Positions 11,577 through 50,254 of a stretch of 64,000 nucleotides of DNA are shown one piece after another. Every line of letters begins with the position of its first letter. The first letter of the stretch is position 1. Made by a program: the position numbers and the translations under genes. The notes beneath the pieces were generated by a model. That model was given only the letters and a program-made list of their open reading frames with translations, had not been told where the DNA came from and did no database searches. Source of the stretch: Acidobacteriota bacterium (lineage in GTDB: Bacteria > Acidobacteriota > UBA6911 > RPQK01 > JAJDTT01); the NCBI GenBank assembly GCA_965209055.1, contig OZ242374.1, positions 768,001 through 832,000 on the forward strand, given 5' to 3'.

Positions 11577-13259
11577 GTGATCCAAGACCGGGTGAGTTGG
11601 GTTGCCGTATCGTTGCTTTGGCTCGCTCCCGTAACCGGCGCGGCAGAAGAACCCGCCAGTCCCGGAATCGTCTTCGAGGAAGCCTCTTCCCGTTCCAGCG
11701 GCATCCGCTGGGTTCACGAGAACGCCATGTCTCCCCAGCGGCACTTGCCGGAGACGGTCGGTCCGGGGTGCGCCTTCTTCGACTACGACAATGACGGATG
11801 GATGGATCTGTACCTGGTCAATAGCGGGGTTTCCGATTTTTACGCGCCCCCGACGCCGCTCCGGAACGCCCTCTACCGCAACGACGGGGATGGGACCTTC
11901 ACCGACGTCACCGACGCAGCGGGAGTAGCAGGGGGTCGATTCGGAATGGGCGTGGCGGTGGCCGACTACGATGGCGACGGCTGGCAGGACCTCTACGTCA
12001 CGAACTACGGGCCCAACTATCTCTATCGAAATAACGGCGACGGAAGCTTCTCGGAGGTGGCCCGGGATGCGGGGGTCCGGGCTCCCGGCTGGTCCACCAG
12101 CGGGGTCTGGTTCGACTACAACGGTGACGGGAGGTTGGACCTGTTCGTCTGCAGCTTCGTCCGTTACGACGAGTCCCTCAGCAAGCTCTGCTTCGATCAC
12201 CTGCGGAAACGGACCTACTACTGCCTGCCGACCCTCTTCGATCCCACTTCCAGTCATCTTTTTCGCAATGACGGCAACGGCCGCTTCACCGACGTCAGCC
12301 GGGAATCAGGGATCGCCGGGCACCCGGGCAAGGCGTTCGGCGTGGTGGCCACCGACGTGAACGACGACGGGTATCTGGACCTGTTCGTTGCCAACGACAC
12401 AGTGGCGGACTTTCTCTTCGTGAACCAGGGAGACGGGACCTTCCGGGAGATGGGCCTCTGGGCCGGAGTCGCGTTCGACGACGGCGGCAAGCCGCGCTCC
12501 GGCATGGGCGTGGATGCCACCGACTACGACGGCGACGGCCGGCAGGATCTCTTCGTCTCCAACATCGACCACGAAGTATTCAGCCTCTACCGGAATCAGG
12601 GGGACCTGACCTTCACCGACGAAGCGGCCGACGTGGGGAAATTGACTTGGTTGCTGAGCGGGTGGGGATTGCGCTTTTTCGATGCGGACAACGATGGTGA
12701 CGACGACCTGTTCCTGGCCAACGGCCACCCGGACGACATGGTGGAAGAGTTCCGCCCGAGCCTGGGGTATCGGGAACCCCTCCTCTACTTCGAGAACGTC
12801 TCCGGCCACTTCCGCGACCGTAGCGGCCAATCGGGCGCCGTCTTTTCTCGCGAATTTTCGGCCCGGGGTCTGGCCACGGGAGACGTGGACAACGACGGTG
12901 ATCCGGACCTGATCATCACCGACAACGGCGGACCGCCCGTGCTTCTCCTGAACCGCGGAGGCAACCGCAACCGTTGGGTCGGCCTCGATCTGATTCCCCG
13001 CCAAGGCCAAACCGCTGTAGGCGCCCTCATCACCTGGTCGGCCGCAGGTGTCGAGCGCCGCCGCTTGAAAAGGGCCGGTGGAAGCTACCTCTCCTCCAGC
13101 GATCCCCGGGAGATCCTGGGTCTCGGCGTAGCCAAAACTCTCGACTGGGTGCAGGTCCATTGGCCCAGCGGCGTCAAGACCAAGCTGACCGGGCTCCAAC
13201 CGAACCAATACCACAAGATCAACGAGTCGGCAGGAGGGGGGACTGTTAGTCCCCCGTGA
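11577..13259 (+). CDS. CRTAC1/ASPIC-UnbV FG-GAP repeat protein (paralog)
   Basis: Same DYDNDG repeats and GGSYLSS..GLG..WPSG end. Confidence 0.9.
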
Positions 13260-13276
13260 CGCGGGGGTTAACAACC

Positions 13277-14635
13277 CATAAGCGCTAACTTGTTTAATGG
13301 TCCATAAAATATCTGCAGACTTGACTGAACCTTTTTCGGGGAGGTTCTGCCAAGGACGCCGAGATTTCGTGCCATTCGTCGACCATGCGGGTCAGGGAAT
13401 ACGCCGGCTCAATGGCTCGCGTGACCTGGTTCAAAGCGAATTTGAACTCACGCCACGGGCTGCGAGTCCGGTCGGATCGCGACATCGTATCCCCAGGGGG
13501 AAATGGTTCGCGCATGGCGGAGCACCTTTTCGACCAGGAGCGCCACCAACAGCTTGCCGTACAACCAAGCCTGGGCACTTGCCTCATCGTGCTTCGGGAG
13601 GTGGCCGAGTTGGGCCAGGGACTTGAAGCGCTTGAAGACCAGCTCAACTTGCCAGCGCAGGCGGTACCACTCCAGCACCTCGGCGGCTGGGAACTCCTCG
13701 GCTGGGTAGGTGGTGAAAACGATGACGTAGCGCGCGAACCGCAGAGTTTCCGGCTGCACCCGTTTGCCCTTGCGCCGAGCCGTCCGGCGGATCTTTCGAT
13801 GCGCGACTTCAATGGCCTCGTCGGTCTTGCGCACCGCGCAGATGCGGCCCACTACGGGGGGGCCGGCCCGAGCGACGGTGCGGACCCTCCAACTGCCGAC
13901 CGGCCCCGGTCGGAGTAGCGTTTCCACCGATGTGAGCAGGTCGAACCTCCGGCCAGCCTCGGTTTCCAGCAACAGCGATCGGGTGTTCACGCGCACCGTC
14001 ACGTACCCTCCGCCTGCCGCGACGTGCTGAATCCCGATCGCCGTCGAGTAACCGCGGTCGCCCAGCACGTAATCGCCCGGCCGAATCGGGAAATGGGTGA
14101 ACGACTCGCCGGTGCCGCGCCCCTTGGTCGCGGTTAGCTTGAAGAAATCGCAGCCGAGCGACGGGAGGTTCACACTGTAGTGAAGGCGCCACAGCGACCC
14201 GGTCCGTCCCGGCTCGTGCACCGTCGTCCCATCGAACGCCCGCACTTGCAAGCCGCCACTGTTCGAAACCACGAGACCATGCTCCCGGAACAGTTCCACG
14301 CACAGCGCGTAGAGCCAGTCGCGGGATTTCCTCAGCCGCTTGAGCAGCGCCACGTCGGATAAATCGGCCAAGTTCGCTTGCCGAGCCCGCACGACGGTTT
14401 CGCGCAAGGAATGCCCGCAGCCGAGATGGATCAGCAGGGTCCGCAACAGGTTTTCCGGTGACTTGTCCTTGCGCAGGCCCTTCAAGGCCCCGGTCGAAGC
14501 CGCCAACTCCCGCCAATTGTCGGGGAAAAACGACATCAGCAAGTCCCAGTCCTCATTCGCAGCCGCCTTGACTACCGTTCTGCTCATGCCCACACTATAC
14601 AAGATAGCGGTTAGGCAAACAAGTTAGCTCTTATG
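13277..14635 (-). mobile_element. IS4-family insertion sequence
   Basis: Terminal inverted repeats CATAAG(C/A)GCTAACTTGTTT; 11-bp target duplication GGTTAACAACC at 13266-13276 and 14636-14646. Confidence 0.92.
13448..14602 (-). CDS. IS4-family DDE transposase
   Basis: AFDGT, LGDRGY, YRLRWQVELVFKRFK (YREK motif). Confidence 0.92.
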   Translation of the reverse strand: MYSVGMSRTVVKAAANEDWDLLMSFFPDNWRELAASTGALKGLRKDKSPENLLRTLLIHLGCGHSLRETVVRARQANLADLSDVALLKRLRKSRDWLYALCVELFREHGLVVSNSGGLQVRAFDGTTVHEPGRTGSLWRLHYSVNLPSLGCDFFKLTATKGRGTGESFTHFPIRPGDYVLGDRGYSTAIGIQHVAAGGGYVTVRVNTRSLLLETEAGRRFDLLTSVETLLRPGPVGSWRVRTVARAGPPVVGRICAVRKTDEAIEVAHRKIRRTARRKGKRVQPETLRFARYVIVFTTYPAEEFPAAEVLEWYRLRWQVELVFKRFKSLAQLGHLPKHDEASAQAWLYGKLLVALLVEKVLRHARTISPWGYDVAIRPDSQPVA

Positions 14636-14737
14636 GGTTAACAACCCCCGCTCCTACTTCGTCGATATTCGTGGGTGATCGTTAGGATTGTTGTGCCGAC
14701 CCCGACGAAAACGTGGGGGTTGGAAAACCCCCACTCC

Positions 14738-14996
14738 TATTTCGACCACCACGGCGAGGTCGACGTCACCAAAAACCGCCTTCCCCATTGGTAGCAACGA
14801 AACGTCTTCGTCACTTGGCGGCTGGGAGACTCGCTTCCACGAACGGTTCCCACGACGAATCGAAGACGGATTGGACCCGGGAAGCGGTTCCTGCGTGCTG
14901 AAGGATCCGGCGCTGGCAGGTGTCGTGGCCGAATACATCCGCGAGAATCCGACGAGGGCCGGATTGCGTGATGGCCAGTTCATACTCTTCGAGACC
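14738..14996 (+). pseudogene. REP-associated tyrosine transposase (RAYT, Y1/HUH) remnant
   Basis: NRLPHW*QRNVFVTWRLGDSLP, frameshift, then RIEDGLDPGSGSCVLKDPALAGVVA joined directly to EYIRENPTRAGL; the HUH core is missing; REPs on both sides. Confidence 0.75.
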
Positions 14997-15013
14997 GTTG
15001 GGAGGGGGACTGT

Positions 15014-15046
15014 TAGTCCGGTGCTCTGTCCAACTGAGCTACGGGA
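15014..15046 (-). pseudogene. tRNA 5'-half fragment (att-site remnant, Arg-like)
   Basis: TCCCGTAGCTCAGTTGGACAGAGCACCGGACTA = acceptor 5' strand, D-arm and anticodon stem; stops in the anticodon loop. Confidence 0.7.
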
Positions 15047-15068
15047 TTGATCCTTTCCTTTCAACAGG

Positions 15069-18000
15069 TTATCCCGATGCTCCTCTCAAATCGTTCGTCC
15101 TATTTCCTCCCCGTTGCCTGTTTGTTGCCGGTCGCATTTGTGAGTCTTCGGTAGCCTGTGCCTCCCGTATGCTGGCCAGCGCATGCGAACTGACGTACCC
15201 CGCGTAGCGCATCGTCGTGCTGATCGCCGAGTGTCCCATCAGCTTCTGCACCGTCCTTACGTCCACCCCCTGCATCAGCCAGTGGCTGCACCGGAATCGC
15301 CTCAGATCGTGAAATCCGACCTTCAACCCCACCCGCTCGGCGGCTCGGCGCAATGGCTTGTCCGGATTCACCCATCTCGTGCCGGTCCGGGTGTTGACAA
15401 AGACATATGGGGTGCTCAGGTAGCGAACCAGCCCGACCAGATATCCAGCCGCGTACTTCGAGAGTGGAATCTCCCTCGGCTCGTCGTCCTTGGTGAACTC
15501 CACCCATAACAGCCTCCGGGATAGGTCCACCCGTTTCCAGGTGAGCGACAACGCTTCGCCTTTCCGAATCCCCGTCTCGCCGATCACCGCAACCATGGCT
15601 TGCAGGTAAGGGTTGTCCATCGCCTCGACCAGGTCGCGGAACTGTTGAACCGTCAAAGGCCGGAAGACCTTCTTGGGTTCTTTGAGTTTGGGGAACCGAA
15701 CCAGCGGGTGCGTGTCCACTTCCCCGCACTCCAGCGCGTAGGAAAACAGCTTGCTGATGGCGGCAATGTCGCGGTTCACCGTGGCCGGCTGCACTTGCTT
15801 CTTCCTCCGGGCGACGTAGCGGTACAGGTCCTTGCGTTGGAACTCCTTCAGGGGAATGTTCCCCAGCACGGCGTTGAGGCTCTTGAACGAGAGCGCGTAG
15901 CGACGGCGGGAGCGCATGCGAGGTTTGCAATACTCCTCGAAGAAACGCTCGTAGAAGCTCCGTACCGTCCAGACGGTGCGATTCCCGCCGGCGAGCTCCT
16001 CCTTGAGCTGCTTCCAGGTGCCGTCCAGGATGCTGGACTCGATTCGTGTTTGAAGCGCCTGCGCGCTCCGGTAGTTGGGGGCGTACATTCGGAGCCGACC
16101 GGATCCGTTCGGCCAGTACTTGCTGACGACGTACCGTCGTCTCCCCCGGCGATCCTTCACCTTGTGTCGCGGTAGGAACGGCGGTTTCCCTCCGCCCCCC
16201 GCACAGATCCGTGCGTGCCCGTTAGGGCACACGGCTCCTGCCTTGGGTCGTTACGGTGAGCCGTTCGCTCGGCCACGGGTGGCGAATCGTCACCGACGGC
16301 CAGAGAAGCTTGGCCATCTTTCGGAGCCGTCTCCACGTGAAGCGCGCTCGCTGCGACCGGCGGCGCAACACCCGCATCCACTGCTCTCGCAGCCGATATC
16401 GAAAGCCTTGCAGCCATCGTCCACTTCCGGGGACCGCAAAGTAGTTGAGCCAGCCGTTCAATACGCGGCCCAACCATTTCCCGACCTCCCAGATGTCGTC
16501 GTGCCGGCGTCTTCGCAGCCTCTCCCCCACCCGTTTCAGGGTTCGTTGCATCCGCTTCGCACTCGGTTTCCGCCCCAGCCGGAACCGCCCCTTCCGGGTC
16601 TTCGCACAGTAGTGCGTGAAGCCCAGGAAATCGAACGTTTCCGGTTTCCGCGCCCCGCGTCGCCGCCGATCCGCTGCCGCAAATCGCCCGAACTCCACCA
16701 GTCGCGTCTTTTCCGGGTGCAGTTCCAGTCCGAACTCGGCGCACCGTTCCCCCAGGTCTCGGAGAAACCGCTCCGCGTCTGCCCGCTTCTCGAATCCGGC
16801 CACGAAGTCGTCCGCATACCGCACCAGGATCGCCTCGCCTTTCGGGACTCGTGGACGCCATTTCCGATGGAACCACTGGTCCAGCACGTAGTGCAGGTAC
16901 ACATTTGCCAGCACCGGGGAGACGATGGAGCCCTGAGGCGTCCCTTTCCCCGTGTCCGACCGGGTCCCTTCTTCCATCACTCCCGCGTTCAGCCACTTGG
17001 TCAGGAGCCGCAACACCCGCCGGTCCCCGATCCGATGTTCCACGAACCGGATCATCCAGTCCCGGTCGATCGCATCGAAAAACGTTCGGATGTCCGCGTC
17101 CACGATCCAATTGACTTTCCGCCGTTCGATCCCGTAGGCCAGGGCATCCAGCGCGTCATGCGCCTTCCGTCCGGGCCGGAACCCGTAGCTGAGCCCGAGA
17201 AACTCCGCCTCATAGATCGGCGTCAGGAGCTCGTCCACCACGGCCTTCTGGAGGATCTTGTCCTCCAGTGCCGCGATCCCGAGCGGTCGTGTCCGTCCGT
17301 CCGGCTTGGGGATTCTCACCCGCCGGACGGGAGGCGCCCGGTACGCGCCCCGGTGCACGCGGCGATGCAGGTCCAGCAGTCGCTCTTCCAGCTTCGCCCC
17401 GTACTCCTCCCACCGCACTCCGTCGATTCCCGGGGCCGCATCCTTCCTCAGTCCGAGGTAGGCGCGGCGCAAGGCCTCCACGGTGATATGGTGCAACAGC
17501 GCGGTCAGTCGCTCCTTGGGGTTTCTCGCTATGGCTCGCCGTATCCGGTCCGCCGCTTGGGACACGCTCCCCCGACTCTGCGTCCGGCGCGTGCTTTGGC
17601 ACACCGAATTCCCCTTGGCTTCATCCCTTCGCTCCACCGGCTCCGCCGAGGGTTCCCCCTCTTTGTTCGCCCGCTTCATCGCTACTATGGATGAATCCGA
17701 CTGCTTCGTTTCGTCCATCATGAGGTTCGGTTTGCTCCTTTCTCATGCGGCCCTGGCTCGACCACCGGAGCGAAATGAAGCCCTCCCAGGTCCCGACACA
17801 AGACGTACGTGCGTGCTTGGGTTCCTAGACACCGCGGTGTCCGTCTGTCCCTCACCTTCCCGGTCCAGCCGGTGTTGCCTTCGACCGCATCCACAGCCTC
17901 GGCACTTCCGTTCCTGCATGTTTCGATGCTCAATAGCCCCGCCCACACGCGCCGCTGCCGACGCTTCGCCGACACCCTCACGGGTGCCAACGCACGGCTC

Positions 18001-18087
18001 GCGGAGAAACGTGGATGGTTAGTCCTTCGTTTCAGCGGACTTTCACCGCTTGTCTTGTGCCAGTTAGCCTGGCGCACAGATGCCCAT
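15069..18087 (-). CDS. Tyrosine recombinase/integrase split by a group II intron (exons 18087-18078 and 16165-15069; 368 aa spliced)
   Basis: AGGAGGAG RBS; ATG GGC ATC T|AC AAG gives MGIYKVKDRRG in frame; catalytic GIRKGE, TK, HDLRR, MGHS, TMRY. Confidence 0.88.
16166..18077 (-). mobile_element. Group II intron (1912 nt)
   Basis: 5' GTGCG; domain V GAGCCGTGTGCCCTAACGGGCACGCACGGATC; domain VI ending TACCGCGAC; EBS1/EBS2 complementary to the 5' exon. Confidence 0.93.
16222..17721 (-). CDS. ltrA: Group II intron reverse transcriptase/maturase
   Basis: APGIDG, IPKPDGRTRPLGI, SYGFRPGR, GTPQGS, RYADDF, FDFLGFTH, domain X GWLNYF; no HNH endonuclease visible. Confidence 0.95.
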   Translation of the reverse strand: MMDETKQSDSSIVAMKRANKEGEPSAEPVERRDEAKGNSVCQSTRRTQSRGSVSQAADRIRRAIARNPKERLTALLHHITVEALRRAYLGLRKDAAPGIDGVRWEEYGAKLEERLLDLHRRVHRGAYRAPPVRRVRIPKPDGRTRPLGIAALEDKILQKAVVDELLTPIYEAEFLGLSYGFRPGRKAHDALDALAYGIERRKVNWIVDADIRTFFDAIDRDWMIRFVEHRIGDRRVLRLLTKWLNAGVMEEGTRSDTGKGTPQGSIVSPVLANVYLHYVLDQWFHRKWRPRVPKGEAILVRYADDFVAGFEKRADAERFLRDLGERCAEFGLELHPEKTRLVEFGRFAAADRRRRGARKPETFDFLGFTHYCAKTRKGRFRLGRKPSAKRMQRTLKRVGERLRRRRHDDIWEVGKWLGRVLNGWLNYFAVPGSGRWLQGFRYRLREQWMRVLRRRSQRARFTWRRLRKMAKLLWPSVTIRHPWPSERLTVTTQGRSRVP

Positions 18088-18676
18088 GCATCTCCTCCTT
18101 TCTGGATCCGGGTTCTTCGCCGTGGGGCGAATCGTACCACGGCTCCAGAGAACGGACCGGTGGGACCTGTCCCCCCAGACCCCCCAGTGGCGCCAGAACC
18201 CGCGCCGGATCACCATTCCGGCGCTGAACCGGGCGCTTTTATTTGTCGCGTCCCATAAGAATGGGTCCCTCGCGCAGGATTCCCGCCGCGTCTCTCGCAG
18301 GCTTCCCGGTCGGAGCAAATCTGTCCCCGGCCGAGGTGTCGCTTGAAACCCCCTCAGGCGGGAATTCTCGTGAGATCGTGAAAAAACAAGCCCGCCATCG
18401 GGCCTGTGTTGGCCCGCCGCAGCCGGACGAAGGGTTAGGTATAGGCCCCGGAGCGTCGTCCAGAAGCCTCCGGCGCGGCGCGGGGAAACAGGCAATTCTC
18501 AGCACGGGCGCAGCCCGTTAGGTAGTCCGTGAGATCCGGAGCTCGGGCGATCGGCAAGACGCGATCCTGCTTCCGGAACTCAGCCTGATGGTGAAGACGG
18601 CTGACGTCATCCGATCTTCGTGAGTAGAATCTGATGGAAGTGGGTCAATCGAAAGCAGGCCAAGGAGGCAAAGCAG

Positions 18677-18805
18677 ATGCGCTCAGACCACACCCCCCCC
18701 ACCATGCTCAGGATGGTCGTTGCCGTCGTCATCGGACTGATTGTGTTCGAGGTGGTGGCGGCGCTGTATCAGGTCGTCGCCGGGTTCTTTCTGGCGGCTT
18801 TCTGA
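18677..18805 (+). CDS. 42-aa hydrophobic membrane peptide
   Basis: AGGAGG RBS; MRSDHTPPTMLRMVVAVVIGLIVFEVVAALYQVVAGFFLAAF*. Confidence 0.55.
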   Translation: MRSDHTPPTMLRMVVAVVIGLIVFEVVAALYQVVAGFFLAAF

Positions 18806-19249
18806 CGTCTTGCCGGGTTTTCGGCCCCAAGAGCAATCCAAAATCACGGCGATGGTAGCCGGTCGGGCCAAGGGTTCCACCTCGATGGCCAGGCCGACAT
18901 GGAAAGCGTCCTCGGTTCTGGCGATCCAGGGGAGAAAGTAAATTGCACCGGTGGGGCTGGGGGCTTGAGAGATCGGTGGCAACACTGAACTGGAGGCAAA
19001 ACGACGCACCCTGTGGGAAATCTCTGATTTTCCACAGGGTGGGGAGGTTCGTTGAGACGAAGCTCGATCCCTCTTTGGAGAGTTCTTTGGTGGGTATGTG
19101 TCTCTTCGCATCCGGGGGGTTCGGGGGGGCTGGCCCCACCGCTACGAGCGTCAGGTTCACGGTCGGCTTGGTGTGCCGAACGGGGTTCAGGCGCACCAGG
19201 GGGGTCTGGGGGGACAGGTCCACCCGGTCCTCGGTCTTCTTCCGGGCCT

Positions 19250-19372
19250 TCCCGCAGGGAGAATTGAGACGGGAGCGACCCCCCCAGGGGGTGTTGCGCA
19301 AATGTGAATTGCGCAACGCCCCCGCGCCCGCACCGGGCAGCAAAAAGGGGGGGTCGCTCCCGTCCACCTCCG
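19250..19372 (+). ncRNA. Conserved structured non-coding motif, copy 1 (RNA or ssDNA)
   Basis: GACGGGAGCGACCCCCC...GGGGGGTCGCTCCCGTC stem enclosing two hairpins; three more copies at 46.8, 47.6 and 48.5 kb with covariation. Confidence 0.55.
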
Positions 19373-19769
19373 ATTTCCCCGAGCGGCCACCCTGTGGCCG
19401 GCAATATGGCCGTAACTGATTGAGACGACAAAGGATCAGGAAAGCGGTTTTGTGAATCACCGGGACTGCTTTTTGTGAATCCACCCCCCGTGTCCCATTC
19501 ACACTCCCGGATCGGGCGCGAGACCCTCTTTTCGCCCACCCGAAACAAGTCGCCGTAAACCTTTGCGACTGCCAAGTGCGGAACTGTCTCGGCGACCGTC
19601 CCGCAGCGTTCGCAATACTGCTCACCTGGCCCAACCTGTTAGTCTCGGCCTCCATGTGTCCATCCTGCGAGCCGGCTCGGTGGAGGACGAACAATTGTCG
19701 GTACAGTCCGTTACCAGGGATGCTCCACTGACTCGGCCAAGGCTGCATTGAAGAGGGAGGAGCGCGACC

Positions 19770-20009
19770 GTGAGGGGACCGAACGGAGGGGTTCAAGTAG
19801 TCTTCTCCGGGGGAGAGTTTGCAATCTACCGGGCGGAGTCGGTGAACTGGGACCGGCGGACCGGAACATTGACCTTGGAGCATTCCGGCCGATCCTCCGT
19901 GTTCGAGCATTGGGGCGCGAGCCTCCAGGTCATCGCCTGGCGGTGGGTTGATGGGTCGATTCAGGACCGGACCTGGAGAGTGAAGACCGAATACGGCGGG
20001 CGCCTCTAA
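19770..20009 (+). CDS. Hypothetical protein (79 aa)
   Basis: GGGAGGAG RBS before GTG; protein-like composition. Confidence 0.4.
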   Translation: MRGPNGGVQVVFSGGEFAIYRAESVNWDRRTGTLTLEHSGRSSVFEHWGASLQVIAWRWVDGSIQDRTWRVKTEYGGRL

Positions 20010-20216
20010 GGCACGATAAGTTGATCTTATTGGACCCTGTGCCGTCCTAGAGTGGCTTGGGCAGCTTCTCTCGGACCACGTTACCGGATGGCTCAGGGCG
20101 GATCCCCGCCCCCGGGAGAACCGGAGAAACCCGCTTCTTTCCCTCAGGATGTCCATTAATTTCAGTGAACGGACCTCCTTGGTGGCTCCCCCTTCCGAAT
20201 CTCTGAGCGTGGGACT

Positions 20217-20732
20217 CTAAGGAGTTGCGGGAGCTTTGTAGAGCACGGTGTCCTCGGTTTCCGTCGCGGCATCGACAGCGATCCCTAGGCCGACTCCAAT
20301 TCCTGTTAAAAGAGCACCGAGTATCAACCCCTGAAAGGCGGTATCGGTCTTTGTTGACTCTTCAACTGTGGCAATTCCAATCAAGGTCAGTCCACCGCCG
20401 ACTGCGGCTCCAACAGCGGCTCCTTTCCATGCTCCGTCTCCCAACCCATCCTTGGAAGGAAGGTTAACTGTCTGGATGTCCGTTTTCGGAATCACTGCAC
20501 GGCCGGCGGGGTTCAGGAGTTCCAGGGCTGACGCCGACAGGCCTCGGAATTGGCCGTGGATTCGATCCCCGTTTTTGAGTTCCACCGTGATGGATGATGC
20601 CATTTCCAAGGCGGAGACCTTCTCCCAGCGGCCGGGGATCACCTCCGCCCGTGCTGGCATGGAGGCCAATCCGGCAAGAATCAAGGCAAGTAATCGAATC
20701 CGGCATGTCTTCATCGTTTGGGTTTTCTTCAT
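20217..20732 (-). CDS. Exported protein with glycine-zipper-like hydrophobic segments
   Basis: AGGAGGT RBS, signal peptide, GAWKGAAVGAAVGGG and GALLTGIGVGLG segments. Confidence 0.7.
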   Translation of the reverse strand: MKKTQTMKTCRIRLLALILAGLASMPARAEVIPGRWEKVSALEMASSITVELKNGDRIHGQFRGLSASALELLNPAGRAVIPKTDIQTVNLPSKDGLGDGAWKGAAVGAAVGGGLTLIGIATVEESTKTDTAFQGLILGALLTGIGVGLGIAVDAATETEDTVLYKAPATP

Positions 20733-24440: not shown

Positions 24441-24753
24441 TTGCGAGACGGAGCCATGGATCCGTCCCGGATCCGGGACTCACCGCAACTTCCACGGACC
24501 CGATCTTCAAGACCGTCTGTGATCGCTTGCCCGAGAGTGGTCCCGACTTGGCCACTCAGGCCACGTTGTGCCGGCTGGAGAACGGCGTCCAGCGCTCGGA
24601 GCTCGGGTTCGGGAAACGACCCGCTGCATCTGGATCCACTTGAGCTCAGCCGACTCCGACCAGAAGGCTGCCCCCCCGGAACCCACGCACCAAGGCCTGC
24701 GATCCCGGCAAAAATCGAGGATCTCTGTCAGGTTTGTGAATCATCGCGGCTAG

Positions 24754-25659: not shown

Positions 25660-25732
25660 AAGGAACTCCGTCCTGGAGGAGAGACCGGCGAGCGGATCCC
25701 GGTCTGAATGGACTGGTTTGAATCACAATCAC

Positions 25733-26554: not shown

Positions 26555-26574
26555 TCCGTAATGGATCGTCACTA

Positions 26575-34848: not shown

Positions 34849-34927
34849 GCGGCACGGTCCTGCACAAAAGGCTTCTACACCGGGTGATTCCCGAGTAATC
34901 AGCGGGCGGAAACCAACGGACTGACTG

Positions 34928-42336: not shown

Positions 42337-43810
42337 CGTGGTCTCCGAGCACGTCTATGATGATCGGTTCCGTCTGCCGCCACTGGAAACTGAACGGCTC
42401 GGCCGATCGCATCCACTCCTTGATGGCTTGATGGGACAGACCGCGCTCTTTCAGAACTCCACACATAGTCGACACCACAAGACGCAGATCACGGATCGAC
42501 AACGGTGTGGCACGGACAGCCTCGGGGTGCGCGCTGACGTCCTGGTGAAGGGACTCAACTGGCAGCGCCGCTGCCACCAAGCGAAGAACGCGGTCGTATT
42601 GCGCTCCCAATGTTGGCGAAAGCCCTTCCCTGAGTGCTTTGATTGCCGGATAGTCGGTGGCGATGTCATAAGATATGCGGCTCTTGTTCTGTCGCCGAAT
42701 CCAAACCGGGAGACGATTGCTCGAAGCTTGTCGGGTGCCCCGACCCCGGTAGGTGCGCCGGGACCCTTCAACCATCCGCTCAACGATCTTCGCTAGGCGC
42801 TTGCGGACGGCAGGCGGGGGCTGCGCAGATGCCTTCTTGACGTCGATCTTCCATTCCGCGTCCATCGTATTCGGAATGTCGATTCCGATGCGAGCCAGCT
42901 TCGTCAGTTCTTGTTTTCGGGTAAGACGAAACCATGTACCGTGCACTATGAGGCGTCGGTTGCGGTAAAGGTAGAACCCCTGGTTACTGACATAGCCCTC
43001 AGGCCCAGCATACCGCTTCCATTCGGCAGTCGACACCTTGTCATGGTGAGGCAGAGTAACAGGGTGTATTCGAATCTCGCGGCCTCCAAGCCTCATTCTC
43101 TCTATCGGGTGATGCTGAGTCGCAGGATGGTTGGAGTGGAACGGATCGAAGGGCTCCAGTAGGTTGTCGTTCATCGACAAGCGAATCTTATGACGACCGG
43201 CCAAGAAACGATGAAACACGAACCTCAGGTGCCTTGCAGCCTCGGCCAACTGGCGCACCAAGTCGCTCCTCCCGGATGCCTCGACAAGGCGGTCGAGCTT
43301 TTCCCATACAACGAGTGTTCCGTCCGCCCGCAGACACCGCGACCAGCGTACTTCATCAACATCGCCGGGGATCTCGACCAGCCATCGATCGTTAGCGACG
43401 ACTGAATCGAGGTCCCAGCGCGCGCAGGAGATTTCGCCCTGATGTTGCGTTACGACCGTGACGCGTCGGCACTGCGAGAAAGATGCGGTCTTCAGGCCGA
43501 GACCAAATCGGCCGAGGTCGGCGTCGTCTCGTGCTTCGCGGGGGCTTCGGGTGCCCGGCCGCATTGCTTCACGCAACTGGCCCCAACTCATGCCACATCC
43601 GTTGTCCAGCACACCGATCGCCGGACGCTCGGCGTGAGTGTCTGCCAATATCTGAATCTTGCGTGCTCTGGCAGTGATTGAGTTGTCGATGACATCGGCA
43701 AGTGCGGTCTTCAGAGAGTAGCCCATGTCCCGCAGGCTCTCGATGAGGGCGGCTGGACTGGGCGCGAGCTCCAGTTCGAGCTCATGCTGTGGAGATGCCG
43801 TCTTGCTCAT
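42329..43810 (-). CDS. MORC/MutL-like GHKL ATPase (MzaB-like)
   Basis: ALADVIDNSI, DNGCGM, DLGRFGLGLKTASFS, QGFYLYRNRRLI. Confidence 0.92.
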   Translation of the reverse strand: MSKTASPQHELELELAPSPAALIESLRDMGYSLKTALADVIDNSITARARKIQILADTHAERPAIGVLDNGCGMSWGQLREAMRPGTRSPREARDDADLGRFGLGLKTASFSQCRRVTVVTQHQGEISCARWDLDSVVANDRWLVEIPGDVDEVRWSRCLRADGTLVVWEKLDRLVEASGRSDLVRQLAEAARHLRFVFHRFLAGRHKIRLSMNDNLLEPFDPFHSNHPATQHHPIERMRLGGREIRIHPVTLPHHDKVSTAEWKRYAGPEGYVSNQGFYLYRNRRLIVHGTWFRLTRKQELTKLARIGIDIPNTMDAEWKIDVKKASAQPPPAVRKRLAKIVERMVEGSRRTYRGRGTRQASSNRLPVWIRRQNKSRISYDIATDYPAIKALREGLSPTLGAQYDRVLRLVAAALPVESLHQDVSAHPEAVRATPLSIRDLRLVVSTMCGVLKERGLSHQAIKEWMRSAEPFSFQWRQTEPIIIDVLGDHDE

Positions 43811-45447
43811 GTGACCGCAGCCACGAGGGCGCCCGAAGCTGCCTGTTCGGGATATCGTACGGAGTCGTCGTGTGCGGGTCCACTGAACGTGCGAGTCTTG
43901 GTGCGCTCATACTCTCCGATCACATCGGCCACGCATCTCGCGATTTGTAGCGCCAAGTAGGGCGGTACGGCGTTCCCAACCTGAACGTACTGCCGAGTCC
44001 TGTCCCCCATGAAAAAGTAGTCGTCCGGGAAGGTTTGGAGCCGGGCAGCCTCACGGACGGTAAGGCTGCGACACTGTGTCGGGTCGGGATGAATGAAATA
44101 GTGGCCGTCCTTGGACATGTGGCTGGTGACCGTGCTCGAAGGACGATCACCGACTTGGACCCGGAAACGGTCGGCGAACTTCCCGGTTCCCCAGTTCGCA
44201 TGGTTTGGGGCCAGAATCTCTGGGAAGTCGGAAGCTTTCGGCGAGACTCCCTTGGCTTTCGCAAATGCGCTCGCGAACAGATACCGCTCTATATCGGCAG
44301 GCATATGCCGTCTCGTCTCGTTGTTAGGTAGTTGCGTCACCCGGGGGTCCCGTATCCAAGTGCGGAGAGGATCGGGGCAAGCCATCTCTGTGCCGCCCGG
44401 CGTGTTACCGTACTCGGGCACCGACCCCGTAACTGCGTCCCGCGTTTCGAGGATTTCGCTGCGGAATCGCGACATCTGATCCGAGGTCATGCGCGGCATC
44501 GGAAGGTCCCCAAGTCGCTTGCACGCTGCCACGACGACATCGCGCCATGCTTCAGAGTTGTCGGCGCGGCTGATTCGGCTGCGAAGCCGCGGCATCTGAC
44601 CGATGACATCTTTCACAGGGACTTGATGATCACTTTTCTCTAAGCGGAGGAGGTCACCCACCGGCAGGACCTTCGCGATGTCGCTCCGTACACAGACCAC
44701 GATGACTCGATGCCGGGCTTGTGGAACACCGTGCTCGTCAGCACGCACCAGGAAATCACTGGGTCTCCGGTCGTCCTTCCAGAGTCCACTGTCTGGTCCA
44801 GCGACCGTGTAGAGTCGATAGCTATCGGTCCCTGTGGCGTGGCGCAGACTCTTCAGGACCTTCTCGATGACCAGATCGTCACCAAGGCGAGCCGAGAGCA
44901 TCCCCTTAACGTTCTCCATAACGGCTACGGCAGGCCTGAGCGCGGCCAAGATCCTCACGTACTCGAAATACAGCGATTGCCGTGTGTCCTTCGCGGGATC
45001 GTAGTTCGCGTTACCTACATTCCTAGCCCTTCCGACGAGCGAGTACGACTGACACGGAGGGCCTCCGAGGAGCACGGCTTCGGGTCCCTGCCGTTCCCGT
45101 ATGCGGTGAATCCGCTTGTCAACCTCCTTGGTGGCACCCGGAGTCCCGAGTTCCAATCGCTGCGTCTCGTCGGCTGCTTCGGCCCACTGCTTCGGGTAGC
45201 TCCGTTGCCAGTCGGGTGCTCGGATGGCACCGCGATTCAGAAAGCTGTGGTATTCGGAAGGGTAATCTTGGCCGAACTTTCTCAGGAAAGCCCTCATGAG
45301 CAGCGTCTTGTGAGCCGACCGCTCCATCTCCACCGAGAGTGCGACCTCGAATCGCACCCGGCTTCGTCCGCCCCGGCACCTAGCGAACCCTTCGGCCAGC
45401 CCTCCAGGACCCGAAAAGAGGTCAACGACCGGGACTGCCTTGCTCAA
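43807..45447 (-). CDS. dcm: DNA (cytosine-5)-methyltransferase
   Basis: DLFSGPGG, GGPPCQ, MENVKG, GVPQARHR, LTVREAARLQTFPD, QVGNAVPP; TTG start after GAGGA. Confidence 0.95.
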   Translation of the reverse strand: MSKAVPVVDLFSGPGGLAEGFARCRGGRSRVRFEVALSVEMERSAHKTLLMRAFLRKFGQDYPSEYHSFLNRGAIRAPDWQRSYPKQWAEAADETQRLELGTPGATKEVDKRIHRIRERQGPEAVLLGGPPCQSYSLVGRARNVGNANYDPAKDTRQSLYFEYVRILAALRPAVAVMENVKGMLSARLGDDLVIEKVLKSLRHATGTDSYRLYTVAGPDSGLWKDDRRPSDFLVRADEHGVPQARHRVIVVCVRSDIAKVLPVGDLLRLEKSDHQVPVKDVIGQMPRLRSRISRADNSEAWRDVVVAACKRLGDLPMPRMTSDQMSRFRSEILETRDAVTGSVPEYGNTPGGTEMACPDPLRTWIRDPRVTQLPNNETRRHMPADIERYLFASAFAKAKGVSPKASDFPEILAPNHANWGTGKFADRFRVQVGDRPSSTVTSHMSKDGHYFIHPDPTQCRSLTVREAARLQTFPDDYFFMGDRTRQYVQVGNAVPPYLALQIARCVADVIGEYERTKTRTFSGPAHDDSVRYPEQAASGALVAAVT

Positions 45448-45627
45448 GGCCTTTCCTCGACCGCAAAAGACTCGCCCGAACGCGCTAGATCGGGCACCTC
45501 GCCGCTCCACGCGGCAGACTCCAATGGTCGCTTCAAGGTAACTCCACAGCTGATCTGGCGCCCCGAGATAGTCCCGCTTGGCGGGGCTCCCAGGACTGCC
45601 CAGCCCTGCCATCGGTCTTGAGTTCCG

Positions 45628-45879
45628 TTAGCGCAAACGCCATCGCTTGGTATCCGCATCTTGGGTCACGATTCCATCCGACTCCAGTAGCGCGAGCATC
45701 GTTCGAGATATGTGTCCCTCGTGTCCGGCGTGTCCATCGTAGATGCCCAGTCTGCGCCCAATATCCACGTTCCGTAGTCCTTGCGCCGTGTCCCGTTCCC
45801 GGAGGAGCATCACGATTGCCGCTTTCATGTCGGCGACCGCCTTCTGAGCAATACGATAAGCCTCGTCTACTCGATCCAT
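45628..45879 (-). CDS. Small winged-helix DNA-binding protein
   Basis: AGGAGG RBS; GLRNVDIGRRLGI...LALLESDGIV..WRL pattern. Confidence 0.6.
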   Translation of the reverse strand: MDRVDEAYRIAQKAVADMKAAIVMLLRERDTAQGLRNVDIGRRLGIYDGHAGHEGHISRTMLALLESDGIVTQDADTKRWRLR

Positions 45880-45989
45880 TCGTCCTCCTGTGCTAAGGGG
45901 TGCCACATCGGAAAGCCGATCCCGGTGGTGTCGAGGATCCGATCTGCAACGGAGCTACCCGGCATATTGCCGTGCTCCGCCACCCGCCC

Positions 45990-46200
45990 CCAAACAAATC
46001 CCTCGGCCAGCCCTCCTGGACCCGAGAAGAGACCGACGACCGTGACCGCCTTGTTCACAGACTGTCCTCGACCGCGATGGACTCGGCCACACGCGCGTGA
46101 TCGAGCATGACGTCTCTCCGGGTGGGAAATTTCGATGGTCGCTTCAAGGTAACTCCACAGCGGCTTGGGGGACCGAGCACGTCCCGCTTCGTGGGAGGAT
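45990..46200 (-). pseudogene. Duplicate of the dcm leader and first codons
   Basis: NKAVTVVGLFSGPGGLAEGF; ATGGTCGCTTCAAGGTAACTCCACAGC shared with ~45523-45550. Confidence 0.7.
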
Positions 46201-46795
46201 ATCGAAGGAATGGACTACCTGTCCATGGACCCGTGTCTGTTGGGGCGCGGCCCGGAACCTCCGCTGCAATTGTCCTCTCGGGCCGCCAGCAGTCGCGCTG
46301 GACTCCCGCCGGGCCGTACTCGCCTCAGCCGGTCCCGGCTACGATACCTCGACCACGCTCTGCTCATGGCGTGCCGCACACGGGCGACTCTGGAAAGCGG
46401 TGACGTAGAGGGCCGGGCCGTCGCGGTGGCATAGTGGCGCGCGCCCCGCAGGCAACTCGATCGGGCTTGGATCAACATCAGCCGCCCTTCGACTCTCCGG
46501 CTAGATTGAAACCAATTGCAGATTGAATCCGTAGAATGTTGCCTTTCGGGCCAGGCCCTGGACCGGGCGCTGGGCCTGGAGCGGACCCCGCCGCCGACCT
46601 CCACCACACGTTCCGAGTTCAGACCTTCCGGGGTTCGGTCCCGGTCCTCGTCCAAGGGGACGCCGAAAATCCACCTGCACCTGCGGACCCCAGTGGCACG
46701 TGTCGCCTGTGGTCATCCCTGGATCACGCACCATGTGTCGTGAACGGACGCCTTGCAGAACCCTAACAGGTCTTCCGGATTCTTCTCCGGGTGCT

Positions 46796-46920
46796 TCCCG
46801 ACAGGGATATTTTGGAAGGGAGCGACCCCCCCAGGGGGTGTGGCGCAGATGTAAATTGCGCCACACCCCCGCGCCCGCACCGGGCAGGAAAAAGGGGGGG
46901 TCGCTCCCTTCCACCTCCGC
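46796..46920 (+). ncRNA. Structured non-coding motif, copy 2
   Basis: GGAAGGGAGCGACC...GGTCGCTCCCTTCC stem. Confidence 0.5.
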
Positions 46921-47552
46921 TTTCCCCGTGCGGGCACGGCGAAGCCGGGAATGTGGCCGCAACTGCATGAGCGACAAAGAGATCGGGGAAATCGCGTGTG
47001 TAAGTAGGCAGACTCCCATGATGTAAGTTGCCCCCTTTGTCTCCCTTACACTCCTGGATCGACACGGTGTGTTGCTCTGTACCCGTCAAAATGAGGTCCC
47101 CGGCAAGCGTGTCGTCCGGCACGAGAGCGTCGCGAACGTCGTCGTCGATCTCCACGCCGGCGGCGCGATCTTCCGCCCATGGTCGCAACTCGATGGCCGG
47201 TTTCAGCGAGGCCGTGACGCTGCCATAGCCGTCGAATCGGCCCGCGTTCCTTGCAGCACACTCCGCATTTCTGGAAGAAGATTGCCTGACACGAAGGCCA
47301 ATGGAGGTCTGGCTCGGCCAGCACGAGGGCGACACCGGGAGCCAAGGAGTGCCAGACCTAGTTCCTGAACGGCGATCAGATCCAGTACGGGATTGTCTCC
47401 AGGCCCGGAACAAGATCAATTTCGATCCGCCAGATCACTCCGCCCAGCCAGCGGGGCCGTCCACAGACGCTTGTACGAGCACTGGCCCGCGGCGGCTTGC
47501 ACACCGCGCCGTTGCGCGGTGCACCGCCACGCGCTGAGGCGATCCAAACGGC

Positions 47553-47677
47553 TTCCCGCAGGGATCAATGGGACGGGAGCGACCCCCCGAGGCGATGGCA
47601 CGGAGAGTGCCCATCAGCCTGCCCCGCTTTGCCGATCCGGGAGGCAAAAAAGGGGGGTCGCTCCCGTCCACCTCCGC
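47553..47677 (+). ncRNA. Structured non-coding motif, copy 3 (divergent inner hairpin)
   Basis: GGACGGGAGCGACC...GGTCGCTCCCGTCC stem. Confidence 0.5.
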
Positions 47678-47914
47678 TTTCCCCGAGCGGCACCGCCGAG
47701 CCGCGATCCGATCCGGAACTCGAACGGGGACAGCAGTTTAGAGAAAAGTAGCCGTGCACGTCGAAGTGGCCTCCTGGCGCACATGCCTCCCGTTGTCTCC
47801 TGTGCACTCCCCGGGCGGCACGGAACCCCACTTTCCGGCGGTCCAGTTCGAGCTCGCGGACGCCGGCTCGAACGCCAGATTACGAAGCCTGCCGGGAGGA
47901 CGACCACGGCGGAT

Positions 47915-48132
47915 CAACGGAGCCGGCCGGCTACCCGTTCCGGACTCTCGCCGGCCAGATAGTTCGCCCAGTCCACCATGAGCCGACACCGGCGCTCGAA
48001 CAGGTCCGTCCGCCGATACGCCGCCTCGACCTTGTTCTTCACCACCTGCGCCAGCGCCGCCTCGACGACCTTGCGCGGATGGTCCGTCTCCTCCTCTGCC
48101 CGGTCCCGGCACGACGACCGGAACCCGTGCGC
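47915..48132 (-). pseudogene. C-terminal remnant of a second P4-type integrase
   Basis: HGFRSSCRD..ETDHPRKVVEAALAQVVKNKVEAAYRRTDLFERR; paralog of 48800-49020. Confidence 0.85.
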
Positions 48133-48437
48133 ACGGCCACGATGTCATTCTGGTGGAGTCGCCGGCGCAGCCGCATTTCTGTGGACTCGGCACCGCGTGG
48201 CGCAAGGATCCGGGACACCGAAAGGAATCAGTGGGCAGAGACGGCGACGCTTGGAGCCAAATCGTCCCCCGCCTGGATCACCGCACGCAGCATCGGCTCG
48301 TGAACCGCGATCCGATCCGATCCGGGATTGTCTCCAAGTCCGGGAAGGGGATCCTATCCGGTGCGCCAGATCACTGCCGCCGCTCCACCCGGAACGAGGG
48401 CCACGTTTCTCCACTTCATAGGGCGTTTCTTCCACCT

Positions 48438-48562
48438 TCCCGTCAGGGATCAATTGGATGGGAGCGACCCCCCCAGGGGGTGTGGCGCAAATGTGAATGG
48501 CGCCACACCCCCGCGCCCGCACCGGGCAGGAAAAAGGGGGGGTCGCTCCCATCCACCTCCGC
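48438..48562 (+). ncRNA. Structured non-coding motif, copy 4
   Basis: GGATGGGAGCGACC...GGTCGCTCCCATCC; homology to copy 1 continues to ~48700. Confidence 0.5.
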
Positions 48563-48799
48563 TTTCCCCGTGCGGGCGCGGCGAAGCCGGGAAAGTGGCC
48601 GTAACTGACTGAAAGGAAAAAAGATCGGGAAAGCGGAGTTGTGAATCGCCGGGACCGCTTTTTGTGAATCCGCCCCGCATGTCCCGTTCACACTCCCGTA
48701 CGGGCACGACACGACACTTTTCAGCGGTCAAAACCGACCTCCCGGATGCCAACTCGGACGCCAGATCCCGAAGCCGGCCGGGAGGACCACCACGGCGGC

Positions 48800-50035
48800 T
48801 CAACGCCGCCGGCCGGACACCAGTTGCCGGCTCCCGCCGGCCAGATAGCCCGCCCAGTCCTCCATGAGCACGCGCCGCCGCTCGAACAGGTCCGTGCGCC
48901 GGTACGCCGCCTCCACCTTGTTCTTCACCACATGCGCCAGCGCCGCCTCGACCACCTCGCGTGGATGATCCGTCTCCTCCGCCGCCCAGTCCCGGAAACT
49001 CGACCGGAACCCGTGCGGCACGGCCGCGATCCCGTTCCGGCGCAGCAGCTTGCGCAACCGGCCGGAGCCGAGCGGCTTTCCGCCCCTTCGGGCGAAGATC
49101 AACCGGGCGGCTCCATGATCCAGCGTGCGGGCCTTCTCCAGGATCTCATTCGCCCGGCGGCACAAAGGCACCCGGTGCGCCCGTTTGGTCTTCATGCGCA
49201 TTCCGGGAACCGTCCACATCCCTTGCGCCGGATCGATCTCCGGCCATTCGGCCCACCGCACCTCGCCCCACCTCGCCGCTGTAAGCACCAGGAACTCGAA
49301 GGCCAGCAGGGACACGGGCATCGCGTTGGAGGCCCGCACCTTCCGGAGGGCCGCCCCCACCTCGCGATGCGGCAAGGCCGGCATGTGCCGCACCACGTCG
49401 TCCTGTGCTCCGAGGACCGCCACGACGCGGTCGCAGGGGTTGTCGGTCCGGTATTCCATCGCCACGGCCCACTCCAGGACCGTGCGGAGGCGCTGTCGCA
49501 CGGTCCGGGCCGTCTTCGACTTCACGTGCCAGATGGGCACCAGGATCTCCAGGACGTCGCCGCTGGTCACCTCCGAGACCGGCATCCGGCCGATGCACGG
49601 AAAGGCGTAGCGTCGAAAGCTCGCCATCCAGTCGTGGGCCTGCCTTGGATTGCGCCAGCCGGGCCGCTTCTGCTCCACCACCCGCTCGGCGGCTTCGGCG
49701 AAGGTGGGCATGGTCCGCGTGCGTCGTCTCTCGGTCAGGGGATCCCCACCTTCGCGGGCCAGCTTGCGGTTGGCCCGCGCCTTCTCGCGGGCCTCGGCCA
49801 GGGACACCAGCGCCACACCGCCGAGACCGAAGTCGCGGCGGCGACCGCGGATGACGAGGCGTTGGATCCAGCTTCGGGCTCCGTTAGGCTTGACGAAGAG
49901 GTACAGGCCGTTGCCGTCGCAGTGTTTGCCCGGTGGGGCGGAGCGGACGAACGCGGCGGAAAGGGCCTTGTGGGGGTGCCGGCCCTTCGGTTTGGATTTC
50001 CGGGGCGGAGCGGGAGAAACAGTTACATCTATCAT
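48800..50035 (-). CDS. P4/IntA-type tyrosine integrase with arm-binding domain
   Basis: DGNGLYLFV..GARSW, VSLAEAR, TAARWGE, RMKTKRAHRVPL, HGFRSSFRDW, LAH, AAY. Confidence 0.93.
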   Translation of the reverse strand: MIDVTVSPAPPRKSKPKGRHPHKALSAAFVRSAPPGKHCDGNGLYLFVKPNGARSWIQRLVIRGRRRDFGLGGVALVSLAEAREKARANRKLAREGGDPLTERRRTRTMPTFAEAAERVVEQKRPGWRNPRQAHDWMASFRRYAFPCIGRMPVSEVTSGDVLEILVPIWHVKSKTARTVRQRLRTVLEWAVAMEYRTDNPCDRVVAVLGAQDDVVRHMPALPHREVGAALRKVRASNAMPVSLLAFEFLVLTAARWGEVRWAEWPEIDPAQGMWTVPGMRMKTKRAHRVPLCRRANEILEKARTLDHGAARLIFARRGGKPLGSGRLRKLLRRNGIAAVPHGFRSSFRDWAAEETDHPREVVEAALAHVVKNKVEAAYRRTDLFERRRVLMEDWAGYLAGGSRQLVSGRRR

Positions 50036-50254
50036 TACACCATAATAAACGGGAACGGGATGGATATCAAGGGATGTCAGGGGAGGACGAAACGGGGTGA
50101 GAACAGTTATAAACTTAATAAATACAACGACTTAAAAGACATTCCGGGATCTCTTTGGATTTCTCTGGATTCAATGGACATGTTGCCGTCCCCCCTACCC
50201 CCCCCCCCCCCCCCCCCCCCCCAATCGGCGGTAAGAAAACCGCCGCTCCTCCCC

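Follow-up and report, generated by a model that had tools for sequence, protein, structure and literature searches.

Islands and prophages that encode tyrosine integrases reportedly reside in transfer RNA (tRNA) genes, and an account attributed to Williams (from 2002) is said to place one sublocation of their integration at the anticodon loop. For P4-like integrases, the usual site is the 3′ end of a tRNA or transfer-messenger RNA (tmRNA) gene. Integron integrases, which act on attC hairpins, and integrative mobile elements exploiting Xer recombination (IMEX), which mimic dif for XerCD, use short palindromic sites and exploit the shape of the site rather than one particular gene. The subject here is a 64,000-nucleotide (nt) stretch, referred to as the window (contig OZ242374.1, positions 768001–832000; assembly GCA_965209055.1, Acidobacteriota bacterium), in which an IS4-family insertion sequence (IS), a 6-kb integrative element and a 16.4-kb island each split a hairpin of the repetitive extragenic palindromic (REP) type. 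The 6-kb element belongs to what is termed the small-integrase family and the 16.4-kb island to the P4-like islands; unlike integrons and IMEX, each element of this host brings its own integrase, and the integrases fall short of integron-specific models. The host genome is a single contig of 6.08 Mb (62.8% GC), and its nearest relatives in public collections are metagenome-assembled genomes (MAGs) of uncultured Acidobacteriota. We put at roughly 0.8 the probability that two families of tyrosine-integrase islands use the REPs of a system of REPs and REP-associated tyrosine transposases (REP–RAYT system) as chromosomal attachment sites, and that the 6-kb family was retargeted to them from tRNA-Arg. 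No report of tyrosine integrases targeting REPs was found in the literature that was searched, which lay outside most subscription journals and supplements.

The elements resemble tRNA-integrating islands, the subject of the Islander database (PMC4383910), in having a tyrosine recombinase, direct repeats at both ends, a dyad core around a 7-nt spacer and a carried part of a tRNA. They differ from them in that the site of the 6-kb family is a REP hairpin and not a gene, with tens of sites and 25 elements in one genome; in that what is retained of the tRNA is its 5′ half, where a 3′ part is usual; and in that both orientations of the same site are used. Tycheposons of Prochlorococcus (10.1101/2020.12.28.424599) are likewise small cargo-bearing elements with a tyrosine recombinase and partial tRNAs at their ends; their integrases group according to target, the targets include tRNA-Arg(tct), and the cargo serves defence and niche functions. 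However, the same report describes them at seven tRNA or tmRNA genes, with one to two elements per genome on average, stacked at one site, whereas the host elements spread over many REP sites (the comparison is by description, not by integrase sequence). REP-targeting insertion sequences (IS1397, IS621, ISPpu9/10, ISPa11 and the IS4-family ISRm22) also use REPs as specific multicopy targets, with all copies in REPs, according to PMC1525189 (Tobes and Pareja, 2006); these five IS families encode DDE or DEDD transposases, and the word "tyrosine" is absent from the paper. Unlike them, the host islands depend on conservative site-specific recombination and carry kilobases of cargo.

The junctions of all three elements were read directly from the sequence, at both ends of each. 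A first-pass annotation of the window had proposed that each element is inserted in a REP-type hairpin and that its removal rebuilds the hairpin; the splits are seen at all the junctions that it named, and its three reconstructions are correct. The 6-kb element (15020–21045, minus strand) has ends that are conserved in about 28–30 copies in the genome. On its left, the attL core (15006–15019, plus strand) consists of the direct repeat GGGACTGTTAGTCC and follows the G-run half of a hairpin named REP-A, and the same junction occurs in seven family members; on its right, attR (21046–21070, plus) comprises the second GGGACTGTTAGTCC (21046–21059), the C-run half of REP-A and a GTCTTC flank. The G-run and C-run flanks together complete a hairpin whose unsplit copy, an unoccupied attachment site of the small-integrase family, lies at 13236–13255 within an intact REP-A that was read directly (13232–13258, plus; G-run, AC, TGTTA loop, GT and C-run, with a 5′ AGGAG flank). 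A paralogous site is also unsplit: at genome position 172931, a copy of the right flank of the 6-kb element runs leftward into an intact REP-A. For the 16.4-kb island (33808–50183, minus), attL (33790–33807, plus) is a REP-B hairpin with the left direct repeat TGCCGTCCCC (33798–33807), and attR (50184–50260, plus) is the right TGCCGTCCCC (50184–50193) followed by CCTAC, a 25-nt C-run and a CGGCGG-type hairpin. The hairpin rebuilt from these ends has its unsplit counterpart at 26993–27008, in an intact compound REP-B (26985–27062, plus; TGCC-loop hairpin, TCTAC, C-run and CGGCGG-type hairpin) that constitutes an unoccupied P4-like site.

The hairpins are true REPs of a REP–RAYT system, as they are present in hundreds of copies and flank a RAYT-like Y1 transposase gene. 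The genome has 124 hairpins of the G-run/AC...GT/C-run type (131 by another pattern), 73 of which have a TAGGA 5′ flank in one orientation, together with 80 + 15 = 95 hairpins of the GCGATT..AATCGC type and 361 of the CGGCGG..CCGCCG type; several REP copies sit just after stop codons or ahead of start codons. A GTAG-type tetranucleotide beside the hairpin is a hallmark of REP–RAYT systems. This signature, which the first-pass annotation had extended to all three insertion sites, stands beside the hairpins split by the IS and by the 16-kb island; REP-A, the hairpin split by the 6-kb element, and its relatives mostly have TAGGA(G). A remnant of the RAYT-like gene (14742–15005, plus; direct reading) has an internal deletion and an in-frame stop after LPHW and lacks both the HUH and the Tyr motif; at its 3′ end it passes into the REP-A split by the 6-kb element, and an intact GGGGGTT..AACCCCC REP (14713–14740, plus) flanks it in a layout that is the same in six relatives. 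In relatives (labelled G001–G035, with further loci and contigs under L numbers; the host is G000), the locus downstream of the FG-GAP gene (window 11577–13259) is an array of hairpins around a Y1 transposase gene, whose translation shows an HUH-like and a Tyr motif. In G001, the intact orthologue scores 35.1 bits against Pfam Y1_Tnp (cut-off 23); among NCBIfam models, it fits REP_Tyr_transpos best (70.5 bits, below the cut-off of 80; E 1.3e-19).

Two of the five Y1 transposase (RAYT-like) matches in the genome (1142970–1143203 and 3139898–3140086) lie within 1 kb of a small-integrase element, and three RAYT loci, including the remnant in the window, have an island in a flanking REP. Arrays of CGGCGG-type REPs (genome 3279847, 3354464, 4203100 and others) lead ARAGORN to predict spurious tRNA-Ser and tRNA-Gly genes; these hairpins therefore resemble anticodon arms.

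The occupation of REPs extends to the whole small-integrase family. Of 58 tyrosine recombinase matches in the genome, 28 match the integrase of the 6-kb element at E ≤ 1e-30, the cut-off used across genomes. The conserved ends (28 integrase-side and 30 far) pair into 25 elements of 2.7–25 kb, leaving one element cut by the contig end, one that is degraded and one end without an integrase. Each of the 25 elements restores a perfect hairpin whose stem is 5 bp or longer (median 8 bp), and each has direct repeats of 7–14 bp at both ends; stems of at least 7 bp are found in 21 of 25, but in only 107 of the 3000 random 60-mers that served as the null, so that the pattern exceeds chance. None of 27 integrase-proximal junctions in the host genome is at a tRNA. 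The first-pass annotation had suggested mapping island ends to look for enrichment in REPs; in the host genome, all 25 mapped elements lie in REP-type hairpins, and not one of them is at a tRNA. Four core groups are recognized: seven elements have GGACTGTTAGTCC; eight have GGACTGTTAGTCC with an inverted loop, corresponding to insertion into this REP in the reverse orientation; five have GATT[G/A]GAAATC inside GCGATT...AATCGC hairpins; and five have T[A/T]GGAAA inside GGGGGT...ACCCCC hairpins. At least eight further loop variants occur among ten copies in G004 (87–90% identical), and all 14 junctions that were read in other MAGs of the genus are of the hairpin type.

Empty alleles, to which the first-pass annotation had pointed as evidence, were found for all three elements as unsplit hairpins at orthologous or paralogous loci. 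At the FG-GAP locus, a REP that a member of the small-integrase family occupies in G006 is intact in G003 and G004. The exact REP-A 17-mer has eight unsplit copies in the host genome, alongside 16 occupied ones, and exact REP-A is present in 17 copies in G001 and 14 in G008; no match to the integrase of the 6-kb element was found in G001 at the above cut-off. Because there is an unsplit paralogue, an empty REP in G003 and G004, and REP-A in G001 without the integrase, the attachment sites exist independently of the elements.

A tRNA ancestry of the 6-kb family is suggested by the arm next to its integrase (15020–15068, minus), which resembles a tRNA 5′ half in that an acceptor remnant and a D-arm lead into the core. 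Past the integrase stop codon, 24 nt are 96% identical to the tRNA-Arg(TCT) of the genome, and the acceptor part of the arm has decayed. The core, GGA-N7-TCC in every subfamily, falls at the position of the anticodon stem-loop when aligned on the D-arm, and in one element the 7-nt overlap is identical to the anticodon loop of tRNA-Arg(TCT) at 6 of 7 positions. A tRNA or tmRNA gene as the site is absent for the elements of the window, and a tRNA site occurs in relatives only (G003, G010, G035, G012 and L090). A complete tRNA-Arg lies directly downstream of the integrase, at the same spacing, in G003 (83% identity), in G010 and G035 (72%), and in L090, a short contig with a partial integrase (87% identity over 165 residues). 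Two copies in G035 are located at tRNA-Arg(TCT) and tRNA-Arg(TCG), and both genes have an identical 5′ part, as expected if the element supplies the 5′ half; in the host genome, the 5′ parts of these two genes differ. The idea that the 5′ half comes from the element is based on position and homology, since the far junction of the tRNA-type relatives was not found in the sequence covered in G035, or clearly in G003. In more distant relatives (53%), the integrase faces the 3′ end of a tRNA-Arg in reverse orientation (G012) or the 3′ half of a tRNA-Arg, cut off precisely at the anticodon arm (G009).

A maximum-likelihood tree of 24 integrases, rooted at the midpoint, includes 10 of the approximately 27 host integrases and 14 other loci (L090, L005/L084, L009, L010 and duplicates were set aside). 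The 19 REP-type sequences form one group (95/90) that lies next to and inside the tRNA-type sequences, with G003, then G010/G035, and then G012/G009 following outward. The proposal in the first-pass annotation that REPs serve as multicopy stand-ins for tRNA sites is accordingly strongly supported for the 6-kb family, for which REPs take the place of the tRNA site as multicopy attachment sites; its tRNA-like attachment end is likewise found in the 6-kb element, as the tRNA 5′-half-like arm with its tRNA-Arg relatives.

For the 16-kb island, that proposal is partly supported: the REP as a landing pad holds, and mimicry of a tmRNA or tRNA lacks support. The integrase of the island (48800–50035, minus; 411 amino acids) has the P4-like domains Arm-DNA-bind_3 (PF13356, DUF4102), Phage_int_M (central, PF22022) and Phage_integrase (catalytic, PF00589), and 16 full-length relatives of it are encoded in the genome. 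The five closest of these integrases (at least 91% identity) all abut the same compound REP-B, consisting of a CGGCGG-type hairpin, a G-run, TAG and a hairpin with a GGCA/TGCC loop; these represent four independent events and not five, because one lies in a segmental duplication of window 21046–51912. The REP-B 16-mer has 12 copies in the genome, five of which are left junctions of islands. Between the same two flanking genes, the compound REP is unsplit in G001, G002, G003 and G006; the locus is occupied in G008, and G007 has no repeat there. The tmRNA-like end that the first-pass annotation had assigned to this island was not recovered: ARAGORN calls no tRNA or tmRNA gene in the whole window, Rfam gives no tRNA or tmRNA match at the ends of either island (E ≤ 1, over 12000–52000), and ACCA follows the repeat in the window island only, one of five copies, the other four having TCTA or TATA. 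At 29 of 30 loci of P4-like relatives there is no tRNA or tmRNA beside the integrase; the exception is an integrase of 46% identity that lies next to ssrA in another genus. As a separate observation, the C-run by the island (50198–50222) is 25 nt long, compared with 7–9 nt at the other four islands and the empty alleles.

Several observations count against the reading of REPs as pre-existing attachment sites taken over from tRNA-Arg. The first concerns occupancy. REP-A is a small variant that is heavily occupied, with 16 copies split and eight intact. At the REP that follows the FG-GAP gene, the TGTTA loop is peculiar to the host genome, all eight relatives having another loop there; elements may therefore sometimes rewrite the loop and not merely find it. 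Taken further, and together with the 13–14 bp that attP and the site have in common, these data would fit an explanation in which the hairpin halves belong to the elements and the intact REP-A copies are excision footprints or rewritten sites. However, G001 has its 17 REP-A copies with no integrase match, the stems and the TAGGA flank are common to about 120 hairpins with other loops, and the targets of other subfamilies are abundant without elements (80 + 15 copies). In addition, REPs flank RAYT genes, and the sequence beyond the hairpin varies between copies. Ownership of the hairpin halves by the elements is very improbable.

The second group of opposing observations concerns the tRNA ancestry. 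We infer the direction from tRNA to REP, and the tree behind it is rooted at its midpoint only; in a second tree, restricted to 165 residues so as to add L090 and L084, L090 joins G003 (98/95) and the backbone is unresolved. The 18 kb upstream at either G035 locus yielded no displaced tRNA 5′ half, with up to three mismatches allowed, and 20 kb of G003 gave nothing clearer than a degenerate piece resembling a D-arm. Neither ARAGORN nor Rfam recognizes the arm of the 6-kb element as tRNA-like. For the 16-kb island, comparison by eye with the 3′ end of the genome's tmRNA and with the ssrA-adjacent relative gave no convincing similarity in the required orientation.

The third group concerns movement. 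No excisionase was identified; the minimal elements of 2.7 kb consist of the integrase and about 1.4 kb that has no open reading frame (ORF) conserved across copies. Among the assembled contigs of four sequencing runs, none skips the 6-kb element and none joins its ends, an outcome that, coming from contigs only, has no bearing on excision; nor was a polymorphic empty allele within the host organism seen in those contigs. Contig joints at 16163–16165/18078 come from intron-less integrase copies elsewhere, and joints such as 21034 to 14722 arise where another family member ends next to a similar REP.

The retention of the tRNA-like arm, the location of close relatives (72–87%) at tRNA-Arg and that of the 46% relative of the P4-like integrase at ssrA would also suit an explanation in which the REP insertions are accidental secondary-site events and the true target is still tRNA-Arg or ssrA. 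This is highly improbable, the least probable of the explanations considered: no host junction among the 27 is at a tRNA, and the host tRNA-Arg(TCT) and tRNA-Arg(TCG) genes are both unoccupied, with the nearest recombinase matches about 40 kb away. Moreover, the attP overlaps have themselves changed to match REP loops, the 14 junctions in other MAGs of the genus are all of the hairpin type, and the acceptor part of the tRNA arm has decayed.

For the preferred reading, retargeting from tRNA-Arg to REPs, the following course of events is proposed. Relatives of the tRNA type integrate in the anticodon arm of tRNA-Arg, where the element would supply the 5′ half of the tRNA. In this genus, the 6-kb family would have been retargeted to REP hairpins, which offer the same geometry, namely inverted half-sites (GGA...TCC in a GC stem) around a 7-nt spacer. 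This spacer would be the overlap where strands exchange, and the REP variant and the orientation would be set mainly by how far the overlap in attP is identical to the loop of the hairpin. The tRNA 5′-half-like arm may be kept as a decaying relic or as part of an integrase-binding arm. P4-like islands would act in the same way at the compound REP, with crossover in the loop and the 3′ stem. In lambda-type tyrosine recombinases, identity of the overlap governs the choice of site. In the tree, integrases that use REP-A in one orientation are interspersed with those that use it in the other, and an integrase that uses the GGGGGTT..AACCCCC hairpin is the sister (98/97) of one that uses GCGATT..AATCGC, with the same loop in both hairpins.

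The use of different stems with the same loop by sister integrases, the fact that every target is a perfect hairpin, and best NCBIfam matches to Xer and integron-type recombinases would all agree with recombination of a folded (single-stranded or cruciform) hairpin, as in the action of integron integrases on attC. Integron-integrase models nevertheless score far under their cut-offs (TIGR02249, 60.4 vs 265 bits; PRK15417, 27.8 vs 435 bits), both junctions keep a full direct repeat of the duplex type, as in a classical attP × attB exchange, and the ancestral targeting of tRNA is classical duplex recombination. The present sequence data accommodate folded and duplex substrates alike, and a folded substrate is judged very improbable.

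A bolder proposal, which is tentative and has the odds somewhat against it, is that the small-integrase family can be re-programmed: any GC hairpin with a GGA/TCC-like inner stem would suffice, the attP overlap would pick the REP loop and orientation, and module M, a non-coding segment found in both integrase families, could act as a transfer or replication handle through which both multiply. If so, a single-base change in attP would make further landing pads available, and RAYT-spread REP families and islands would diversify together, with a REP variant becoming nearly saturated in places (16 of 24 REP-A copies).

Module M (19225–19560, plus; 335 bp) is a conserved segment with a nested long hairpin (about 18 + 15 bp; fold z-scores −6.6 and −5.9) and four TGTGAAT motifs. 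It has stops in all frames and no Rfam match, and it is among the most conserved parts of small-integrase elements; 33 of its 66 BLAST hits in the genome lie inside such elements. Three partial copies (46781–46990, 47552–47691 and 48427–48722, plus) lie beside the P4-like integrase of the 16-kb island, and the module also adjoins other P4-like integrases. The description of the three mobile elements as unrelated in the first-pass annotation consequently fails for two of them: the integrase elements are not unrelated, because both carry module M. Judged from its sequence, the module could serve as an origin for transfer or replication, or function as an RNA. A 475-amino-acid ORF at 18729–20156, which overlaps it, is probably not a gene.

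A second group of P4-like integrases (63–66% identity) abuts a CCTTCCCGCAAGGAA-like motif, and the same motif starts module M. Their starts are at genome positions 68153, 580081, 1599016, 2485161, 3143647, 3383889, 3838725, 3920035, 4968583 and 1610484; two of these integrases lie within elements of the small-integrase family, a sign that islands may be nested within other islands. Ahead of several integrases of the group stands a repeat of about 120 nt that starts CAGTCCGTGGTGAAAGTCCC, and this repeat also interrupts an integrase gene in G006. At genome 3379318–3381705, there are three tandem tyrosine recombinase genes with open frames of 352, 320 and 261 amino acids, a layout that we take to resemble that of the recombinase-in-trio element.

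The integrase gene of the 6-kb element is interrupted by a group II intron. Exon 1, ATGGGCATCT, is at 18078–18087 (minus) and exon 2 at 15069–16165 (minus), and the whole protein is a tyrosine recombinase of 368 amino acids (Pfam Phage_integrase PF00589, E 2.6e-26). The intron (16166–18077, minus; 1912 bp) contains a reverse transcriptase/maturase ORF at 16222–17721 (RVT_1) and matches Rfam RF02005 with 160.7 bits (gathering score 49) and RF00029 with 41 bits (gathering score 40). It is located in the start codon region, after nucleotide 10 of the integrase coding sequence and in sense orientation; its boundaries were obtained from an intron-less twin element (genome 2828078–2832191) with an uninterrupted integrase gene. 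The twin elements are 100% identical over 2992 bp, which indicates recent mobility; the elements may be active today. Three copies of the intron that are 100% identical (window; genome 3708108–3710019 and 5306071–5307982) all follow ATGGGCATCT and sit in three elements of different subfamilies, and from these positions the intron appears to home to the integrase gene itself. The element also has a cargo ORF of 171 amino acids with a signal-peptide-like N-terminus and no family match (20217–20732, minus), and a conserved distal arm (20894–21045, plus) that is present in 30 copies. In metagenome runs labelled sponge and marine (X1 and X2), contig pieces are 90–99% similar to the flanking gene, the integrase and the intron (window 12500–22400); relatives of the host lineage and their elements therefore occur in sponge and marine sample types.

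The IS4-family insertion sequence (13277–14635, minus) encodes a transposase at 13448–14602 (minus) that matches Pfam DDE_Tnp_1 and the NCBIfam IS4 family (NF033592, 156 bits, cut-off 115), and its terminal inverted repeats begin CATAAG. An 11-bp target duplication, GGTTAACAACC, is present at 13266–13276 and 14636–14646. The left half of the hairpin split by the IS, REP-C, is at 13261–13276 (plus) and includes the left duplication; the right duplication, the right half of REP-C and a CTCCTAC flank are at 14636–14657 (plus). Once the IS and one of the duplicates are taken out, a hairpin of 9-bp stem remains, followed by TCCTAC. The IS would thus be an element that transposes into a third type of REP, with the duplication centred on the loop. 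Three identical copies are present in the genome, and all three are in the same hairpin type, one in the inverted sense. The hairpin is unsplit in G001, and in G008 a related IS occupies the orthologous hairpin in the opposite orientation. REP targeting by this IS is already known behaviour for insertion sequences: the statement in the first-pass annotation that some IS families target REPs is in print, including for IS4 (PMC1525189).

The cargo of the 16-kb island is of the Mza type (35381–45612, minus; Pfam and PADLOC). It comprises, all on the minus strand, a C5 DNA methylase (43807–45612), MzaB (42329–43810), MzaC/Z1 (39631–42336), MzaD/DUF4420 (38625–39668) and MzaE/AIPR in two ORFs (37526–38650 and 35381–37504); the methylase and MzaB–E form a candidate defence system. 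The second MzaE/AIPR ORF (707 amino acids) has about 360 extra N-terminal residues with no family match. Window segments 21046–34061 and 48933–51912 are 94–99% identical to genome 172931–187661 through segmental duplication; the duplicate holds a shrunken 2.5-kb copy of the island, and its left boundary lies exactly in REP-A. Window 24503–26935 contains two S-adenosylmethionine (SAM)-methyltransferase-like genes (24754–25659 and 25733–26953), in place of which the paralogous copy has 209 bp; these genes adjoin the unsplit REP-B at 26993, and there is no integrase nearby.

Tyrosine-integrase islands are usually regarded as bound to a single conserved gene or a handful of them, tRNA genes in most cases, and this bond limits the number that can share a genome. 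In the lineage described here, a tRNA-specific family appears to have escaped that limit by way of host repeats of the same shape, with about 25 cargo islands per genome. The finding joins two fields that are usually apart, REP–RAYT biology and island integration. The natural series from the tRNA-Arg loop through a near-identical loop to unrelated loops provides material for the study of how integrase specificity evolves, and related integrase/attP pairs with different short targets are of interest to builders of integrase tools. For the uncultured Acidobacteriota lineage itself, the islands show the spread of Mza defence cargo.

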